Shown: positions 14,331 through 24,079 of the stretch, one piece after another | Layout: each line of letters starts with the position of its first letter | Numbering within the stretch: the first letter of the stretch is position 1 | Source of the DNA: Escherichia phage ECD7 | Reading direction: 5' to 3' (one strand) | Sequence record: NC_041936.1 | Length of the DNA: 64,000 bases | Position numbers and translations under genes: made by a program | The notes under the pieces: generated by a model | The model's database searches: none | What the model was told of the DNA's origin: nothing | What the model saw: the letters and a program-made list of their open reading frames with translations, nothing else

Positions 14331-14338
14331 TAAGCGAA

Positions 14339-14368
14339 AGGCGGGGATAATCCCCGCCTTTTTATTTT
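14339..14368 (+). terminator. rho-independent terminator downstream of gene 54
   Basis: AGGCGGGGATAATCCCCGCCT hairpin followed by TTTTTATTTT. Confidence 0.65.
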
Positions 14369-14847
14369 GCTAAATCATTGCAATATTTTAGTGCCTTAGT
14401 TTGAAATTCTGCGCTGTTAAGTTCTTCATAACGGTCATAATCACCGTTTAATGCTGCCTTTCTTGCTTCTTGCTCTATCTGCATGTCAGACATGATAATA
14501 CAGCGATCCCGCGCTTTCATCTTCTCAAGTTGTATAGACTCTTCTTTCTGCTTGCGCAATTCTTCTTGACGCTTCTTTTCTTCTTGTGCTTTCTCTTCCC
14601 GCGCTTCTTTGATTGCATCCTTGAACATCTGCGTTTGTGGTGCTAAACCAACTTTAACGCGATCCACGTCTCGACGTTCCATTTTAGAAATAAAGCATGA
14701 TTCGATCTGATCATCACTTGCATATGCTGCTTTACATTCACGAAGCAAGAAAACCGGATCTGATTTAGCATTCATCATAGCTTCCATGTTGGCACAACCA
14801 GTAAGCATGAATGCAGCCGCAAGACCAATCAGTTTAATCATTTTCAT
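14362..14847 (-). CDS. predicted lipoprotein
   Basis: signal peptide with lipobox (..FMLTGCANM..), charged coiled-coil body. Confidence 0.6.
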   Translation of the reverse strand: MKMIKLIGLAAAFMLTGCANMEAMMNAKSDPVFLLRECKAAYASDDQIESCFISKMERRDVDRVKVGLAPQTQMFKDAIKEAREEKAQEEKKRQEELRKQKEESIQLEKMKARDRCIIMSDMQIEQEARKAALNGDYDRYEELNSAEFQTKALKYCNDLAK

Positions 14848-15668
14848 TTAGTCACCTCACCGAAAATTGTAAATTGTCTACGATTCTCATCGCCGAAAGA
14901 TTCTACTACGTCGTTTACCTTGACGCAAGTCCCGCGCGGTAAAATTACTTCACATTCGCAAGGGTTCCATGCAATTGACCCAACAACAAAACCTTTATGA
15001 TCTTTTACGTCAATTACCCATGATACATTACAAGAATGTTGCATCTTTCCGGTCATTGATTCATATCGATTCTCGCAATAAAGGCTAGTGCTGTTTGATA
15101 GCCATCCTCCAAAGATGATTGGTGTCATGCTGGTTGACACAAAGTTTTTAAAGGTAAATTCCTTATCTTCAATAATACGCTCTATTGTCTGAATGTCAAG
15201 ATGTTGACCGCGATAAAGAGTACCGTTTAACTTTTCGGTTTTATCCATGACACAATCCATCAAATCAACAATCTCTGATATCTCATCGGTCATGTCTTCT
15301 TCCCCTAAGAGAGCACCATTTACCCATTCGTATTGTTCGGACACATAATCACAGATTGCATTATATTCTGCTGGGGTTATGTTGTTATGTTTGTAATGTT
15401 TGAATACATTATCTCCAAAGTCTTCGGAGTGTACTTCATACATCACATTAATGATTTTCTTGACAAATCCATAATCTTGTGTCTCACGCTCAAGGAAGCG
15501 GATAACCTTCACATAATCATCAAAGTTAATCTGATCGCTGATCATCTCAGTGATCATGTAACCATTAATCCCCTCAATGTCATATGTTTCGATGTAATTA
15601 TCCATACGTTCCATCATTGATTCGCGTGATTCTTCTGAAAGACGAAAATCCTGTAATTTCTTGAACAT
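14844..15668 (-). CDS. Alt-like ADP-ribosyltransferase paralog
   Basis: 274 aa; shares YRGQ.., FKNFVSTS.., GGW and ECEVILPRG motifs with the C-terminal region of the adjacent Alt ORF (R-S-E ART signature). Confidence 0.7.
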   Translation of the reverse strand: MFKKLQDFRLSEESRESMMERMDNYIETYDIEGINGYMITEMISDQINFDDYVKVIRFLERETQDYGFVKKIINVMYEVHSEDFGDNVFKHYKHNNITPAEYNAICDYVSEQYEWVNGALLGEEDMTDEISEIVDLMDCVMDKTEKLNGTLYRGQHLDIQTIERIIEDKEFTFKNFVSTSMTPIIFGGWLSNSTSLYCENRYESMTGKMQHSCNVSWVIDVKDHKGFVVGSIAWNPCECEVILPRGTCVKVNDVVESFGDENRRQFTIFGEVTK

Positions 15669-15680
15669 TTTAAACCTCCC

Positions 15681-15720
15681 ATATAACAGAAAACGGGGCT
15701 AGTATAAAACTAGTCCCCGT
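15681..15720 (-). terminator. terminator-like hairpin between alt and alt-like gene
   Basis: ACGGGGCTAGT..ACTAGTCCCCGT long hairpin followed by T-rich run on minus strand. Confidence 0.45.
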
Positions 15721-15746
15721 TTGAGTCAACCATTATTTCTTAAAAA

Positions 15747-17798
15747 TTACATTTTAAATTTATCTGGCATTGCGTCTACAGATACCAGATCAGCGATAAG
15801 CTGACGTAGAGTTGCCTTATCTGCTTTCTTACGTTCGGTTTTAGCTTCGCTAATGAAGCTGGAGAAAGACAGGTCAGAAGCAGGTTTAACAACACCCTCA
15901 CGGATGAATGCATCACCGTCCGCGATCATCTCACCAGATTCTTGTAATGCTGCCAGTTCACTTTTGTTCATAATATGTGCCTCAATGTAATAAGTTTCTT
16001 GTGAATCCGTCGATGCCGTAGCACGAGTTACCGTATCAAAGGATAACACAACACCGCGAGGAAGTAAAATCTCGCATTCTTTGTAAGCAAATGCTTTGTT
16101 ACCTACTGGCAATACAGGGATGTTTTCCGCGCCAGCGATAGAGAAAGCAACATTAGCGCCACCTTCACCGCGAGAGCCAGCCATAGAATCAACACCAGCA
16201 ACGGCACTAGCCACGTTTGCATTCCAGCCACCAAAAATATTAGGCGCAAGGGAAGTGCTCACATAGTTTTTAAAGTAAAACGCTTTTTGCTTACGTGCAG
16301 TTTCCCACATTTGCGACCGGAAGTCCATACCACGATACAGAATAGTACCCGGATCAAGTTTAACACCATAGTTAGAGAAGGCATTATCCAGTGCATCGCA
16401 CATCTTGACCAATTCTTCTGGATCTGCGATTCCCTCAAACTCTTCCAGCTTGCGATCAGTTAGGAAGTTGTTCATATTGATGTATGCTGCATCGGCATAT
16501 TCGCTCAACACAAAACCTTCCGCGCCCGGCAGATCAAGATCAATATCTGCCATCATTTCACCCATGTTGCTAGCAATTGCTTCAAACATACCGGACGCAA
16601 CATTACGAAGGGCATCGGTTTTAATCTGGGTGATATGACTACGCAGCATTTCAGCTTTTACATCTGCTGGCATAGACTGGTCTACTCGATCCATTGCCAG
16701 GGCGGTGATCTTGTTTTCGAATACTTCCTCGCTCATGATTTCTTTTAAGCGTTTGATTGAGGCTGCGATAACTTCCGCAGACAACGGATCATATTGATCC
16801 TGAACTTTTACCAGTTCGCTTACTGCGTATTTTGCATCGGCTTCGCTTTCAAAAATAGTACGCATGAAACCATAGCGAGTGATAATATCACTTGTCCAGT
16901 CATTCAGAGAACGGGCGGTTGAACGTTCTAAGGCTTGACGGTCAATCAGAGTATTAAACTGTTTCTTAGGTTCGGCTTCGGTGATATCTTCTTCCGGTTT
17001 AAGATTAATTTTTTCTGGATGATTCACGTAGTCGCTGTTATAGGTCGCTTGAGTTTTCAGCATTTCTTCTTTAGTCAAACGAGATTTAGCCGCTACGCGT
17101 TGTTCTGCTTCCGCGTTTCGTTCTTCTTCTGACACAAGACTAGCCGCATACGCCTCATCTTTAGTCAGAGATTCACCAGTAGCCTTAGATACCCAGCGAT
17201 CACCTAAATCACTTTCTACTTTAGTGAACAAGGATTCATCAAGTTTAATCCCTTTAATCTTATCAATCGCCATCCCGCGACGTTTGACAACAACTAAAGC
17301 GATCTTTTTGCTGGTCATTACTTCCTGCTGGAATACTTCAAACTTCGGTGTACGACGCACCAAACGCTCTATAACGCGCTTAACCAGTTCGGTCTTACCT
17401 TTCATGCGGGATACGTTAAAACGGAACATAACAGCGTCTAATTGCGCTTTACGGGCTGTTTCCATAACCACATCAAAAGCACTTGCCATAACTGCAATCG
17501 GGTTATCACCTAGACCATTTTTAAGCTGTACAATACGACCGCTTTTGTTCATTTCACACAGTACAACGTGTGCGGTCTTGTCACCCATACGAATAATTTT
17601 AGGTGTTTTGTTGGTGAAGTTGCAAAGACGGACAATCACATCTTTATCGCGTGTCTGTACTGCAAAAAGCTGTTTAGGATTCTGCTTAGGCTTTAAGCAT
17701 TGTACCGGAGCAATACTGCCAAAGTTTTCTTCCTCTTCCGTCAACAGCCATTTCTCGAAAGATTCAATCATTAGATCGTCGATTTCTAAGTTAAACAT
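15747..17798 (-). CDS. alt: Alt ADP-ribosyltransferase (internal head protein)
   Basis: 683 aa (T4 Alt about 682); LYRGMDF, FKNYVSTSLAPNIFGGW, ECEILLPRG; position between gene 54 and ligase. Confidence 0.85.
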   Translation of the reverse strand: MFNLEIDDLMIESFEKWLLTEEEENFGSIAPVQCLKPKQNPKQLFAVQTRDKDVIVRLCNFTNKTPKIIRMGDKTAHVVLCEMNKSGRIVQLKNGLGDNPIAVMASAFDVVMETARKAQLDAVMFRFNVSRMKGKTELVKRVIERLVRRTPKFEVFQQEVMTSKKIALVVVKRRGMAIDKIKGIKLDESLFTKVESDLGDRWVSKATGESLTKDEAYAASLVSEEERNAEAEQRVAAKSRLTKEEMLKTQATYNSDYVNHPEKINLKPEEDITEAEPKKQFNTLIDRQALERSTARSLNDWTSDIITRYGFMRTIFESEADAKYAVSELVKVQDQYDPLSAEVIAASIKRLKEIMSEEVFENKITALAMDRVDQSMPADVKAEMLRSHITQIKTDALRNVASGMFEAIASNMGEMMADIDLDLPGAEGFVLSEYADAAYINMNNFLTDRKLEEFEGIADPEELVKMCDALDNAFSNYGVKLDPGTILYRGMDFRSQMWETARKQKAFYFKNYVSTSLAPNIFGGWNANVASAVAGVDSMAGSRGEGGANVAFSIAGAENIPVLPVGNKAFAYKECEILLPRGVVLSFDTVTRATASTDSQETYYIEAHIMNKSELAALQESGEMIADGDAFIREGVVKPASDLSFSSFISEAKTERKKADKATLRQLIADLVSVDAMPDKFKM

Positions 17799-17840
17799 TT
17801 TATATCCTCTAGTTGATAACCTATAAACCTATATTTATGA

Positions 17841-17862
17841 AAAAGGGGCTTAACGCCCCCTT
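17841..17862 (-). terminator. terminator-like hairpin upstream of alt
   Basis: AGGGGCTTAACGCCCC hairpin flanked by A- and T-runs, possibly bidirectional. Confidence 0.45.
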
Positions 17863-18077: not shown

Positions 18078-18143
18078 TTTGATACTCATTAGTAGTTCGT
18101 TTCGGTATGTGTGCATTATAGGGGATCACCGATCCCTTGTCAA
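18078..18143 (-). promoter_or_regulatory. early promoter cassette (PeSL-like) 1
   Basis: minus strand: TTGACA, 17-bp spacer containing inverted repeat GGGATCGGTGATCCCC, TATAAT, conserved leader ..CCGAAACGAAC.., then ATG. Confidence 0.6.
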
Positions 18144-18151
18144 CAACTTTT

Positions 18152-18670
18152 TTAGTTATTTTTTAATTGCTCATCTTGCAATAGGGCAATCACATGCTGG
18201 CGATGTTCTTCCGATTGAGGCACACCGAAAAAGTTTGTTTTGTAGAAATACTCTAATCGGTCTTCTCGTGTGCTCTCTTCCATCATGATCGCGGGTAGTC
18301 CGAGATTTCGGAAACGTCGCTTTTCTGCTGGCGTAAAATCACTGTAATACAGCATATAATCATCATTACCAGCAATGCTAAACTCATCCTTCATGAAAGA
18401 GAATATTGCGTTTAAACGCTGTTTACCGTCCACGATTTCGATTTCATAGCGAGAGCCATCATCAATCTTAGCCATTGCGATAGCACCAACCGGAAAATCA
18501 TTAATCAGGTTTTCGATAAACATACGTTTGTTTTCTGTGTCCCATACCAAAGGACGCTGATAATCTGGGTTCATGTTGATATAGCCATCTTCTAACCATG
18601 CTTCGTAAACAGAGATGACAAAGTTTTTAGTATTGGTATAGTAACGGCGTTTAGGCGTTAAACGGTTCAT
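18152..18670 (-). CDS. DUF262 (ParB/Srx-like nuclease/NTPase domain) protein
   Basis: motifs NPDYQRPLVW and DGKQRL are the DUF262 signature; start set to ATG (MNRLT..) with AGGAG SD, 1 nt after upstream stop. Confidence 0.6.
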   Translation of the reverse strand: MNRLTPKRRYYTNTKNFVISVYEAWLEDGYINMNPDYQRPLVWDTENKRMFIENLINDFPVGAIAMAKIDDGSRYEIEIVDGKQRLNAIFSFMKDEFSIAGNDDYMLYYSDFTPAEKRRFRNLGLPAIMMEESTREDRLEYFYKTNFFGVPQSEEHRQHVIALLQDEQLKNN

Positions 18671-18671
18671 A

Positions 18672-19001
18672 TTATAGTCTCCTGAATGGATCATCACGTA
18701 AATCAATATCTTTTAAGAACTCATCCCATGAATGGCGGATATTGTTCTTAATTCTCCAGATAAGCGCAGGGATTGAACGCTCTCCCATCTGGAAGTAAGG
18801 ATCATATGATCCGTATGCCCAATATGCTACTACAATTCCACAATCAGCGCAATAGTATTCTATTTCACTTGCTGGCGACCAAAGTCCATCAATATGATCA
18901 GTGATCTTGCTTTCGATGTTATGGCTATGACAATCAGGGCAACGGATGCAATGACCTTGTTTATCGTAATTTGACGTTAGAGAATACTTAAACAATCTCA
19001 T
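18672..19001 (-). CDS. zinc-ribbon-like hypothetical protein
   Basis: 109 aa, CIRCPDC...CADCG cysteine pairs. Confidence 0.5.
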   Translation of the reverse strand: MRLFKYSLTSNYDKQGHCIRCPDCHSHNIESKITDHIDGLWSPASEIEYYCADCGIVVAYWAYGSYDPYFQMGERSIPALIWRIKNNIRHSWDEFLKDIDLRDDPFRRL

Positions 19002-20207: not shown

Positions 20208-20276
20208 TGTTTGATTCTCCTAAGTGGTATCTCGTCTTGATGGTTGTATTGTAGGGGAGTTATCCTCCCCTGTCAA
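20208..20276 (-). promoter_or_regulatory. early promoter cassette (PeSL-like) 2
   Basis: TTGACA, 17-bp spacer with palindrome GGGGAGGATAACTCCCC, TACAAT, leader, GGAGAATCAAACAATG. Confidence 0.55.
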
Positions 20277-20290
20277 CACTTTTTATAAAA

Positions 20291-20458
20291 TTATTTGTTA
20301 ATTTCTGGTGCGTTGCTCGGATAGTAACCTTCTTTAACGCCCAGGTATTTCGCAACCATCCCTACAATCTTCTGTGCTACTACAATGTCAAATTTCAGAT
20401 AATCTTCGCCGTGGGTTTCAATGATATATGCTTCACATGCTGCTTTAGTCTCGAACAT
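20291..20458 (-). CDS. hypothetical 55-aa protein (copy 1 of duplicated gene)
   Basis: read by eye: MFETKAACEAYIIETHGEDYLKFDIVVAQKIVGMVAKYLGVKEGYYPSNAPEINK; near-identical paralog at 23549-23716; own promoter cassette. Confidence 0.5.
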   Translation of the reverse strand: MFETKAACEAYIIETHGEDYLKFDIVVAQKIVGMVAKYLGVKEGYYPSNAPEINK

Positions 20459-20520
20459 TTTGATTCTCCTATTTCGTTTCGGTATGGGTGTATTATAGGG
20501 GATCTCCCGATCCCCGTCAA
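20459..20520 (-). promoter_or_regulatory. early promoter cassette (PeSL-like) 3
   Basis: TTGACG, spacer GGGGATCGGGAGATCCCC, TATAAT, leader CCGAAACGAAAT, GGAGAATCAAAATG. Confidence 0.6.
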
Positions 20521-20534
20521 CAACTTTTTTAAAA

Positions 20535-20816: not shown

Positions 20817-20878
20817 TTTTGATTCTCCAGTTCGTTTCGGTATGGGTGTATTATGCTATGTTCTTACTTTGGTGTCAA
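20817..20878 (-). promoter_or_regulatory. early promoter cassette 4
   Basis: TTGACA, 17 bp, CATAAT, conserved leader and GGAGAATCAAAA ATG; spacer not palindromic here. Confidence 0.55.
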
Positions 20879-20885
20879 CAACTTT

Positions 20886-21155
20886 TTAGATATTTTCAGA
20901 AATAAATTTTAAAACTTGACGTAAATGTTTCTCATCTTTGATAGTCGCCGGAAGTTCTTCTTTTACTTCCTGTGCAAGATAGATATTTCCGTTCCAAGTG
21001 AAAGATCCGTCTTCGTTTACGCGATAGCTGAACATCCACTCGCAATCATTTTCGATTTCATATACACACAGAAGGGTGTAATCGTTAAAGCTATTGATTT
21101 CAAGGTCGAAGCCGTGACGTTTTGCAAAGTTGGTAGTGGTTTTAGTCAGTGCCAT
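20886..21155 (-). CDS. hypothetical small early protein
   Basis: 89 aa, promoter cassette upstream. Confidence 0.55.
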   Translation of the reverse strand: MALTKTTTNFAKRHGFDLEINSFNDYTLLCVYEIENDCEWMFSYRVNEDGSFTWNGNIYLAQEVKEELPATIKDEKHLRQVLKFISENI

Positions 21156-21224
21156 TGTTTGATTCTCCTAAGTGGTATCTAGTTTCGATGGGTGTATTAT
21201 GCTATACACAGGATCTGGTGTCAA
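21156..21224 (-). promoter_or_regulatory. early promoter cassette 5
   Basis: TTGACA, 17 bp, CATAAT, leader CATCGAAAC.., GGAGAATCAAACAATG. Confidence 0.55.
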
Positions 21225-21248
21225 TGCCTTTTTTAAAATTTTATGCAA

Positions 21249-21928: not shown

Positions 21929-22003
21929 AATTTGATTCTCCTAGTTAGAAAGTGTATCTCGTTTCGATGGGGATATTATGCTATACCCCCGATCTGGTGT
22001 CAA
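21929..22003 (-). promoter_or_regulatory. early promoter cassette 6
   Basis: TTGACA, 17 bp, CATAAT, leader ..CATCGAAACGAGATAC.., GGAGAATCAAATTATG. Confidence 0.55.
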
Positions 22004-22009
22004 CACTTT

Positions 22010-22288
22010 TTATAAAATAATTTTTTGATATTTTTCTATGATGTTCGTGTAAGTCACATCAACCGCTAGCACCGTTGCTTCGAATCCACCGTTTAGCCAA
22101 TGGCTATGATCATGGTCGTGAAAGAAACCTAGTCCAGTACGAAGACCTTCTTTATATTCTGCGCGTACATTCAGTTTGTCGTCGATAAACAGATAAAACC
22201 ATGAATTTTTACTAGGATTGATGATACAACCTTTCAGATTAGGGAGAATATCACGACTAAGAATAAATTTATCACCTACTTTGAACAT
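22010..22288 (-). CDS. HxHW-family small protein (paralog 2)
   Basis: start set to ATG (MFKVGDK..) with GAGGA SD; ..FYLFIDDKLNV..HDHSHW..TVLAVDV.. Confidence 0.55.
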   Translation of the reverse strand: MFKVGDKFILSRDILPNLKGCIINPSKNSWFYLFIDDKLNVRAEYKEGLRTGLGFFHDHDHSHWLNGGFEATVLAVDVTYTNIIEKYQKIIL

Positions 22289-23545: not shown

Positions 23546-23548
23546 CGA

Positions 23549-23716
23549 TTATTTGTTAATTTCCGGTGCGTTGCTTGGATAGTAACCTTCTTTAACACCC
23601 AGATATTTTGCAACCATTCCGGTGATCTTCTGTGCCACTACGATATCGAATTTCAGGTAGTCTTCACCGTGGGTTGCTACAATGTATGCTTCGCATTCTG
23701 CTTTAGTCTGGAACAT
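23549..23716 (-). CDS. hypothetical 55-aa protein (copy 2 of duplicated gene)
   Basis: MFQTKAECEAYIVATHGEDYLKFDIVVAQKITGMVAKYLGVKEGYYPSNAPEINK; roughly 85-90 percent nt identity by eye to 20291-20458. Confidence 0.5.
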   Translation of the reverse strand: MFQTKAECEAYIVATHGEDYLKFDIVVAQKITGMVAKYLGVKEGYYPSNAPEINK

Positions 23717-23778
23717 TTTGATTCTCCTTTATCTCGTTGGTATGTGTGCATTATAGGGGATCACCGATCCCCTGTCAA
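23717..23778 (-). promoter_or_regulatory. early promoter cassette (PeSL-like) 8
   Basis: TTGACA, GGGGATCGGTGATCCCC, TATAAT, leader, GGAGAATCAAAATG; duplicated with cassette 3 together with its gene. Confidence 0.6.
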
Positions 23779-23783
23779 CAACT

Positions 23784-24079
23784 TTATAATGCTTTATATG
23801 CGTATTTCATAAATTTGTCTGCCACTTCATTGGCATGTTCAGATTCTACGCCTGATTCGAGAACAATAGCTAGGTCGGTTTCGTCATTCCCGCCGTACCA
23901 ATGATTTGATGTTCGATTTTTTTCAATTGGAAATTGGTCACTTTTATCTGTGCGACAAAATACATCTAAATGCTCGTCGATGTAAAAGATCCAATCTTCA
24001 TAAAGAATAACGGTATTAGCCAGATTTTTATTGCCTTCAACGAAAGGTTCGGCTACAAACAAATTAGTATGTTCCATAG
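23784..24079 (-). CDS. HxHW-family small protein (paralog 5)
   Basis: start set to ATG MEHTNLFV.. (SD GAGGAAAT); ..ILYEDWIFYIDEHLDV..SNHW..LAIVLE. Confidence 0.5.

Follow-up and report, generated by a model that had tools for sequence, protein, structure and literature searches.

A stand-alone Alt catalytic-domain paralogue behind a predicted early promoter at the alt locus of RB49-like phages

Phage ADP-ribosyltransferases (ARTs) reprogramme host transcription and translation, and Alt, ModA and ModB of bacteriophage T4 are the model cases. In a 64,000-nucleotide (nt) stretch of the Escherichia phage ECD7 genome (NC_041936.1; "the window" throughout), the alt gene, for a 683-amino-acid (aa) ART, is followed on the minus strand by a second ART gene of 274 aa, which we call short ART. 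By sequence, the product of short ART corresponds to the catalytic domain of Alt preceded by a short N-terminus specific to its own family; it is not, on the same comparison, an Alt core fused to an unrelated N-terminal domain. The explanation we favour, and consider probable, is that short ART encodes an active and old paralogue of the Alt catalytic domain, which would be expressed early in infection and would be absent from the virion. The two genes and their catalytic residues are positioned as follows.

15747-17798, minus strand: alt, encoding a 683-aa Alt-like ADP-ribosyltransferase; annotated as alt in RB49, Phi1 and GEC-3S
About residues 425-610 of alt, minus strand: ART domain of Alt, with R489, S514-T-S516 and E574-C-E576
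14844-15668, minus strand: short ART, the short Alt-like ART gene, 274 aa; the same as RB49ORF183c; PHROG 15144
15210-15212, 15129-15137 and 14949-14957, minus strand: catalytic codons of short ART, for R153, S178-T-S180 and E238-C-E240, respectively

Both proteins pass the gathering cutoff (23.4 bits) of the Pfam family PF03496 (ADPrib_exo_Tox), short ART with 59.3 bits (E = 4e-16; residues 82-266 on profile positions 2-187 of 196) and Alt with 37.3 bits. The 683-aa protein matches the Alt family PHROG 802 over its full length (E = 6e-180), while the 274-aa protein belongs over its full length to PHROG 15144, a family labelled 'ADP-ribosyltransferase', and its match to PHROG 802 (E = 3e-45) is confined to profile positions 330-602 of 674. 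In BLASTP the two neighbours are 37% identical over 109 aa (E = 1e-16), an alignment that pairs LYRGQ with LYRGM, FKNFVSTS with FKNYVSTS, IFGGW with IFGGW and ECEVILPRG with ECEILLPRG. The R-S-E order of the catalytic motifs is thus present in short ART, with the arginine of strand β1 (R153) in LYRGQ, S178-T-S180 in β2 and E238-C-E240 in the ARTT loop/β5. An AF2 model of the protein (mean pLDDT 78.9, pTM 0.75) consists of six N-terminal helices followed by the ART β core, and Foldseek comparison of this model with the PDB is led by Vis, C3bot2, Certhrax, CDTa and iota Ia (E values from 4e-10 to 1e-9, probability 1.00), with Tre1 also among the best structural matches. A sequence search of the PDB for relatives of Alt and Mod gave marginal matches only (Tre1, SpvB and Vis; E 0.07-0.55), and a search of NCBIfam gave no match for Alt, short ART or the lipoprotein encoded next to them. 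These features identify short ART as a probable NAD+-dependent mono-ADP-ribosyltransferase of the R-S-ExE (Alt/VIP2/C3-like) type, presumably active as an enzyme. The distinction between ExE and QxE, established for the C2/iota and C3 enzymes, marks out the arginine-specific ARTs.

Profile-profile alignment (hhalign) places residues 65-273 of short ART on residues 395-610 of Alt (E = 5e-43), whereas nothing in Alt was found to correspond to the first ~64 residues, which are also poorly conserved within the short-ART family itself. Short ART is without the first ~390 residues of Alt and without its conserved C-terminal tail of ~70 residues, so the architecture of Alt proper (~600-700 aa, with the N-terminal region and the C-terminal tail) is not that of the 274-aa protein. 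A neighbour-joining (NJ) tree built on the ART domain gathers the short ARTs into a clade of their own with 97% bootstrap support, outside the clade of all full-length Alts, which include the neighbouring Krischvirus Alt, T4 Alt, RB51 Alt and RB51 Alt.-2; the tree was built by NJ only, and its deeper branching is weakly supported. Because the short ARTs separate outside all full-length Alts, short ART is best regarded as an old paralogue and not as a recent copy of its neighbour, and a recent duplication of the adjacent alt was rejected at that bootstrap value.

In comparison with T4 Alt, the catalytic domains are homologous, with LYRG, F-x-N-x-VSTS, IFGGW and E-C-E-V/I-L-LPRG common to both, and the genomic locus, between DNA ligase/alt and gene 54, is also alike. 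Short ART differs in having a shorter segment between STS and the ARTT loop, which carries the family-specific motif NSTSLYCENRY, in the absence of the Alt tail that ends in ...P-x-KF-x-x, and in being preceded by an early-type promoter where alt is preceded by a late-type one. Other paralogues at this locus, namely alt.-2 of RB51 and T2, ORF187c/188c of 44RR and alt.-1/alt.-2 of T4, are likewise tandem duplicates. Of these, alt.-2 of RB51/T2 encodes 685 aa; in RB51 it is full-length and falls inside the Alt clade, and RB51 carries two full-length Alts in tandem. In T4, alt.-1/alt.-2 are what is left, in decayed form, of the first, non-catalytic part of a second alt, and their annotation is that of an old duplication interrupted by a stop codon; unlike them, the RB49-type short open reading frame (ORF) holds the catalytic part only and is intact.

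The gene is conserved and under constraint. The 3.6-kb stretch that covers alt and short ART was compared with phage records and matches 57 of them at 95-99% DNA identity, all from RB49-like Krischvirus coliphages (RB49, Phi1, JSE and GEC-3S among them; phage Cognac is the top match, at 99.1%), so the window belongs to a Krischvirus (RB49-like) T4-like genome. Short ART is present in 57/57 of these records, full-length and at 97-100% aa identity. Furthermore, a search of 5.8 billion proteins recovered distant orthologues of 272-288 aa with BLASTP identities of 83, 63, 48, 44 and 45%, the last three being 46, 45 and 42% identical in the multiple alignment. A profile search of 1.84 billion cluster representatives returned two of these again (P0005 and P0006) and one further strong member, P0009; below it came a gap, and then Alts of 600-700 aa and large multidomain proteins with E ~1e-32 to 1e-28. 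With this gap below a few strong members, the short-ART family is small and distinct. R153, S178-T-S180, E238 and E240 are invariant in 7/7 aligned homologues, including five short-ART orthologues (83 to ~41% identity), as is, within the short-ART family, the VILPR that follows E240. Against the 83% orthologue, the ratio of nonsynonymous to synonymous substitution rates (dN/dS) is 0.098. Short ART is a live gene under purifying selection and not a decaying copy. One public assembly holds a truncated copy, the 76-aa protein P0059, which is identical to the first ~72 residues of short ART and then runs out of frame; it may reflect either an error of sequencing or a real frameshift variant.

The gene is also already known. 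The original GenBank record of RB49 (2003) described RB49ORF183c as 'similar to C-terminal part of T4 Alt protein', and it was later listed as a paralogous duplication of alt, beside the other paralogues of the alt locus (Nolan et al., 2006). RefSeq and many recent submissions annotate the ORF as an ADP-ribosyltransferase. Short ART, annotated since 2003, is an ordinary feature of Krischvirus and not a new kind of element. The first-pass annotation of the window, which was made from the sequence without database searches, had described tandem ARTs, a 683-aa Alt and a 274-aa paralogue with the same catalytic signature (the arginine of YRGQ, STS and ExE). Both ORFs were found where it had placed them on the minus strand, both carry the PF03496 domain, and the motifs do align, in BLASTP as well as in the profile-profile comparison. 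Its further claim of a different N-terminal region holds only for the first ~64 residues, as the protein is Alt-like from there up to residue 273. Of the alignments that it had proposed, the one with T4 Alt gave clear homology, and those with ModA and ModB gave no match.

The gap between the two genes holds a composite element, which is followed by the ribosome-binding site of short ART.

15686-15737, minus strand: composite PeSL-type promoter/terminator in the gap between alt and short ART
15675-15680, minus strand: Shine-Dalgarno sequence GGGAGG of short ART, kept in relatives

Read on the minus strand from alt to short ART, the region runs from the alt stop codon in an AT-rich stretch through G-TTGACT, a 17-nt spacer, TATACT, a stem-loop, TTTTCT and GGGAGG to the ATG. 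The −35 element TTGACT occupies 15724-15729 and the −10 element TATACT 15701-15706, and the stem-loop (15692-15721) overlaps the −10 and is followed by UUUUCUGUU. The stem-loop, ACGGGG(A)CTAG...CTAGCCCCGT, has a 12-base-pair stem with one bulge ahead of UUUUCU. For the whole intergenic region of 78 nt the folding energy is −20.9 kcal/mol (z = −2.8 against shuffles), and TTGACT-17-TATACT scores 10/12 as a promoter. In five divergent related phages, the ART proteins of which are only 42-83% identical, the element is kept nearly base for base: no change is seen in either promoter hexamer (−35 and −10), in the loop, in the G/C runs or in the U-tract, and in the stem two pairs have changed on both sides in a compensatory way. 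In the more distant L020 and L021, two of the uncultured relatives considered below, the stem differs in sequence and is the same in shape and position. As called, the start of P0009 (L020 1503-1560) falls inside the loop of this conserved hairpin, and translation probably begins at the ATG that follows GGGAGG, which is M13 of the called product.

An early promoter of RB49 was predicted at the same spot, as Pe:112388 with a score of 9.3, in the available passages of the supplement to Nolan et al. (2006), and the AT-rich leader and GTTGAC fit the early consensus given for RB49 in that work (Nolan et al., 2006). The arrangement resembles the PeSL ('promoter-early stem-loop') cassettes described in RB49 and phi1 (Arbiol et al., 2010, Comeau et al., 2014) in its AT-rich upstream stop, its σ70-like −35 and −10 with a 17-nt spacer, and its stem-loop of a G-run and a C-run that overlaps the −10 and leads into the Shine-Dalgarno sequence and start codon. 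It is unlike them in that it is not a repeat of the canonical copies in the window, in having TATACT as its −10, and in that it is position-conserved across deep divergence, whereas typical PeSLs flank ORFans that come and go. It occurs only once in the window in a search for further copies, and we saw no name for it in the sections of the PeSL papers available to us. Experiments on other PeSL copies of RB49 and phi1 demonstrated strong early promoters and stem-loops that terminate efficiently (Arbiol et al., 2010, PMC2839356). The hairpin between alt and short ART is thus part of a predicted promoter/terminator cassette that fits the published PeSL layout. The first-pass annotation had seen a terminator-like hairpin separating the two genes; the stem, at 15692-15721, is real, as its folding score and covariation indicate, although it is not just a terminator, since a promoter overlaps it. 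Because the hairpin is embedded in a σ70-type early promoter, alt and short ART are probably expressed at different times.

Upstream of alt the signals are of another type.

17845-17859: terminator ahead of alt, formed by the GC-rich hairpin GGGGCTTAACGCCCC and T-runs
17832-17839, minus strand: late-promoter-like CATAAATA, which agrees at 7/8 positions with TATAAATA, the late promoter of T4

The sequence CATAAATA closely follows the terminator hairpin and precedes the alt start by ~30 nt, and the same layout of hairpin and then promoter is present in T4 alt, with TATAAATA, and in L005, with AATAAATA in the matching place. A TransTerm terminator between alt and RB49ORF185c is listed in the supplement passages (Nolan et al., 2006). 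ATAAATA preceded by a non-T is strongly depleted in the whole window, with 3 found against 17.4 expected from shuffles, and one of the three stands before alt; exact TATAAATA is not depleted there (5 against 5.4 expected). Neither TATAAATA nor a late promoter motif was found upstream of short ART, where there is a σ70-type promoter instead. The hairpin and late-type motif shared with T4 and L005 suggest that alt is transcribed late, with CATAAATA as its putative promoter.

The complement of ARTs differs from that of T4. Searches of a complete RB49 genome with tblastn and hidden Markov models (HMMs) found three: Alt, short ART and one gene of the Mod family (PHROG 832; OZ035808, L010, 86698-87246 on the minus strand), which lies outside the window and adjoins homologues of srd and dda. 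This Mod gene was found by tblastn with T4 ModB (33% identity over 113 aa) and not with ModA, and it has LYRG and ERE motifs. The number of ARTs is the same as in T4 (Alt, ModA and ModB), but their make-up is different, with one mod in RB49 and two in T4. The ModA and ModB tblastn queries and the Mod HMM gave no match to short ART, and its membership of the ModA/ModB family (PHROG 832) was rejected, as there is no sequence match and it belongs to another PHROG. ModA and ModB (200-207 aa) resemble short ART in being small stand-alone R-S-E ARTs made early in infection, and unlike the Alts they have no detectable direct sequence similarity to it; with its predicted de novo early synthesis from a σ70-type promoter, short ART probably works likewise.

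Short ART is the second gene of a three-gene module at a T4-like locus, in which the plus-strand baseplate/tail genes 29, 48 and 54 converge on the minus-strand block that contains alt.

14362-14847, minus strand: predicted lipoprotein gene, 161 aa, lipobox LTGC; third gene of the module
14336-14362: bidirectional terminator between the module and convergent gene 54, based on the window sequence, the GEC-3S annotation and the Nolan supplement

The supplement passages list this terminator as '54-><-RB49ORF182c' (Nolan et al., 2006). The order of alt, short ART, a lipoprotein gene of 159-174 aa and convergent gp54 is kept in uncultured T4-like phages (L005-L008, L014-L015 and L020-L022), in which alt encodes 660-668 aa where complete and among which are contigs of ~168 kb; in L018 and L019 alt followed by short ART is retained and the contigs stop after short ART. 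In the window the start of the lipoprotein gene overlaps the stop codon of short ART as ATGA, and the two genes are predicted to be translationally coupled. The lipoprotein has the lipobox L-T-G-C and four cysteines conserved across all relatives, and the third gene of the module is labelled 'putative lipoprotein' in phage W115. It evolves very fast, with 33% identity between the window and L014 where Alt has 98%, and it has a weak, non-significant Cor-like match (E = 0.007). A correspondence to T4 Alt.-3 was rejected, as there is no similarity.

Along the module, the window and L014, a close relative from metagenomic data, differ in a mosaic manner. Their DNA is ~95% identical through alt and the intergenic element, falls to ~70% exactly at the start codon of short ART, reaches 83-89% in the 3′ half of that gene, drops to ~55% across the lipoprotein gene and stands at 86% again in gene 54. 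Synonymous divergence (dS) is 0.27 for alt, 1.15 for short ART and 2.5 for the lipoprotein gene. The breakpoint lies within 100 nt of the PeSL-type element, which is consistent with exchange there and is not proof of it. The pattern is circumstantial evidence for an exchange of alleles that broke at the PeSL or beside it, which is what the PeSL model proposes.

In our proposed model, the stem-loop and U-tract would stop or attenuate transcription of alt that starts at the late-type promoter, and the overlapping σ70-type promoter would start an early transcript covering short ART and the translationally coupled lipoprotein gene. T4 Alt is packaged in the T4 head. The Alt of the window would similarly be made late, packaged and injected, while short ART would be made de novo early and would modify host proteins during takeover, in the manner of T4 ModA and ModB. 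Several points weigh against this model. The score of Pe:112388 is low beside the ~19-39 of other RB49 promoters in the same passage (Nolan et al., 2006, supplement), and the −10 reads TATACT and not TATAAT. TransTerm called no terminator at the alt/short-ART hairpin in the available passages of that supplement, and short ART could for that reason also be expressed late by read-through from alt. The loop of residues 187-210 (GGWLSNSTSLYCENRY) is strongly conserved, yet it is modelled with low confidence, and the probable arginine specificity is taken from the ExE motif by itself. Finally, the literature search found no functional study of short ART, no biochemical, transcriptomic or virion-proteome data on it, and no relevant virion proteomics of Krischvirus.

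Three other explanations were weighed, and all are less well supported. Short ART could be an internal protein that is packaged in the head and injected, with its N-terminus (MFKKLQDFRLSE...) as a capsid-targeting leader or one processed by the prohead protease, which we regard as rather unlikely. It lies directly downstream of alt, where read-through of the terminator could give late expression, and its N-terminus, which may loosely resemble the capsid-targeting sequence of IPIII, carries an L-x-E motif (L10-S-E12) of the kind at which the T4 prohead protease cleaves. Many myovirus ARTs have moreover been argued to be packaged (Iyer et al., 2022). Short ART, however, has neither the N-terminal ~390 residues nor the conserved C-terminal tail of Alt, it has its own conserved σ70-type early promoter and no TATAAATA, and no virion proteomics supporting packaging was found in the literature. 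Within the family the N-terminal ~45 residues lack conservation, only M1 being invariant before D45, and a conserved capsid-targeting leader is not supported.

That short ART is a truncated, nonfunctional remnant of an alt duplication, as the first-pass annotation had itself raised, would be in line with the decay of partial alt duplications in T4 (alt.-1/alt.-2) and with the 76-aa truncated copy P0059 of one assembly. This is highly improbable and effectively refuted by conservation: the low dN/dS, catalytic residues that are invariant down to ~41% identity, the full-length gene in every Krischvirus record, synteny across deep divergence and a confidently predicted ART fold all argue for a functional gene. 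It is also possible, though we give it only a modest chance, slightly above that of packaging, that short ART and the lipoprotein gene form a mobile accessory cassette that serves mainly inter-phage or anti-defence conflict and not general takeover, for example if the ART modified a toxin or defence protein of the host and the lipoprotein brought about superinfection exclusion. The pattern of identity and dS between the window and L014 is as expected for PeSL-mediated exchange of modules, and the Cor-like match of the lipoprotein points in the same direction, but that match is not significant, and the genes stand at the same locus in every relative examined, which argues for a resident locus with allelic exchange rather than a roaming cassette.

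The surroundings of alt contain further PeSLs. Seven direct repeats of 62-65 nt, in two families, lie at 18093-18154, 20227-20291, 20470-20531, 20828-20893, 21175-21239, 21954-22018 and 23728-23789. In minus-strand orientation they are PeSLs of the canonical kind (GTTGACA, a stem-loop, and TATAAT or a variant) before small ORFs, in the hyperplastic region upstream of alt; a GGGGATC...GATCCCC stem-loop is present in the two best-matching copies of family D2, and the others have variants or no clear stem. The same region has a direct repeat of 238 nt with 84% identity (20290-20527 and 23548-23785, 3.3 kb apart), which probably reflects duplicated units of a small ORF and a PeSL. A 184-aa ORF at 18152-18706 on the minus strand encodes only the N-terminal DUF262/ParB-like domain of the GmrSD type IV restriction enzymes (PF03235, E = 6e-20), and lacks GmrSD's C-terminal nuclease domain.

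Returning to short ART as a presumably early-expressed catalytic-domain paralogue, a more far-reaching proposal, which we consider speculative and unlikely to hold in full, is that the enzyme may have a target unlike those of Alt and Mod, such as a host defence or toxin protein, or an RNAylation-type chemistry. On this proposal, a deeply conserved PeSL-type switch would divide one ancestral alt locus between an enzyme that is late and packaged and another that is early and cytoplasmic, and the element would also act as a recombination joint for the swapping of ART/lipoprotein alleles between related phages.

The solution of the RB49-type phages thus differs from that of T4: they combine a single Alt and a single Mod with a free-standing copy of the Alt catalytic domain, whose control is separate and apparently early. 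The old clade, the three-gene module, the position-conserved PeSL with its covarying stem and the mosaic breakpoint are modest comparative leads, and they may be useful for testing target specificity in the Alt family or the function of PeSLs.

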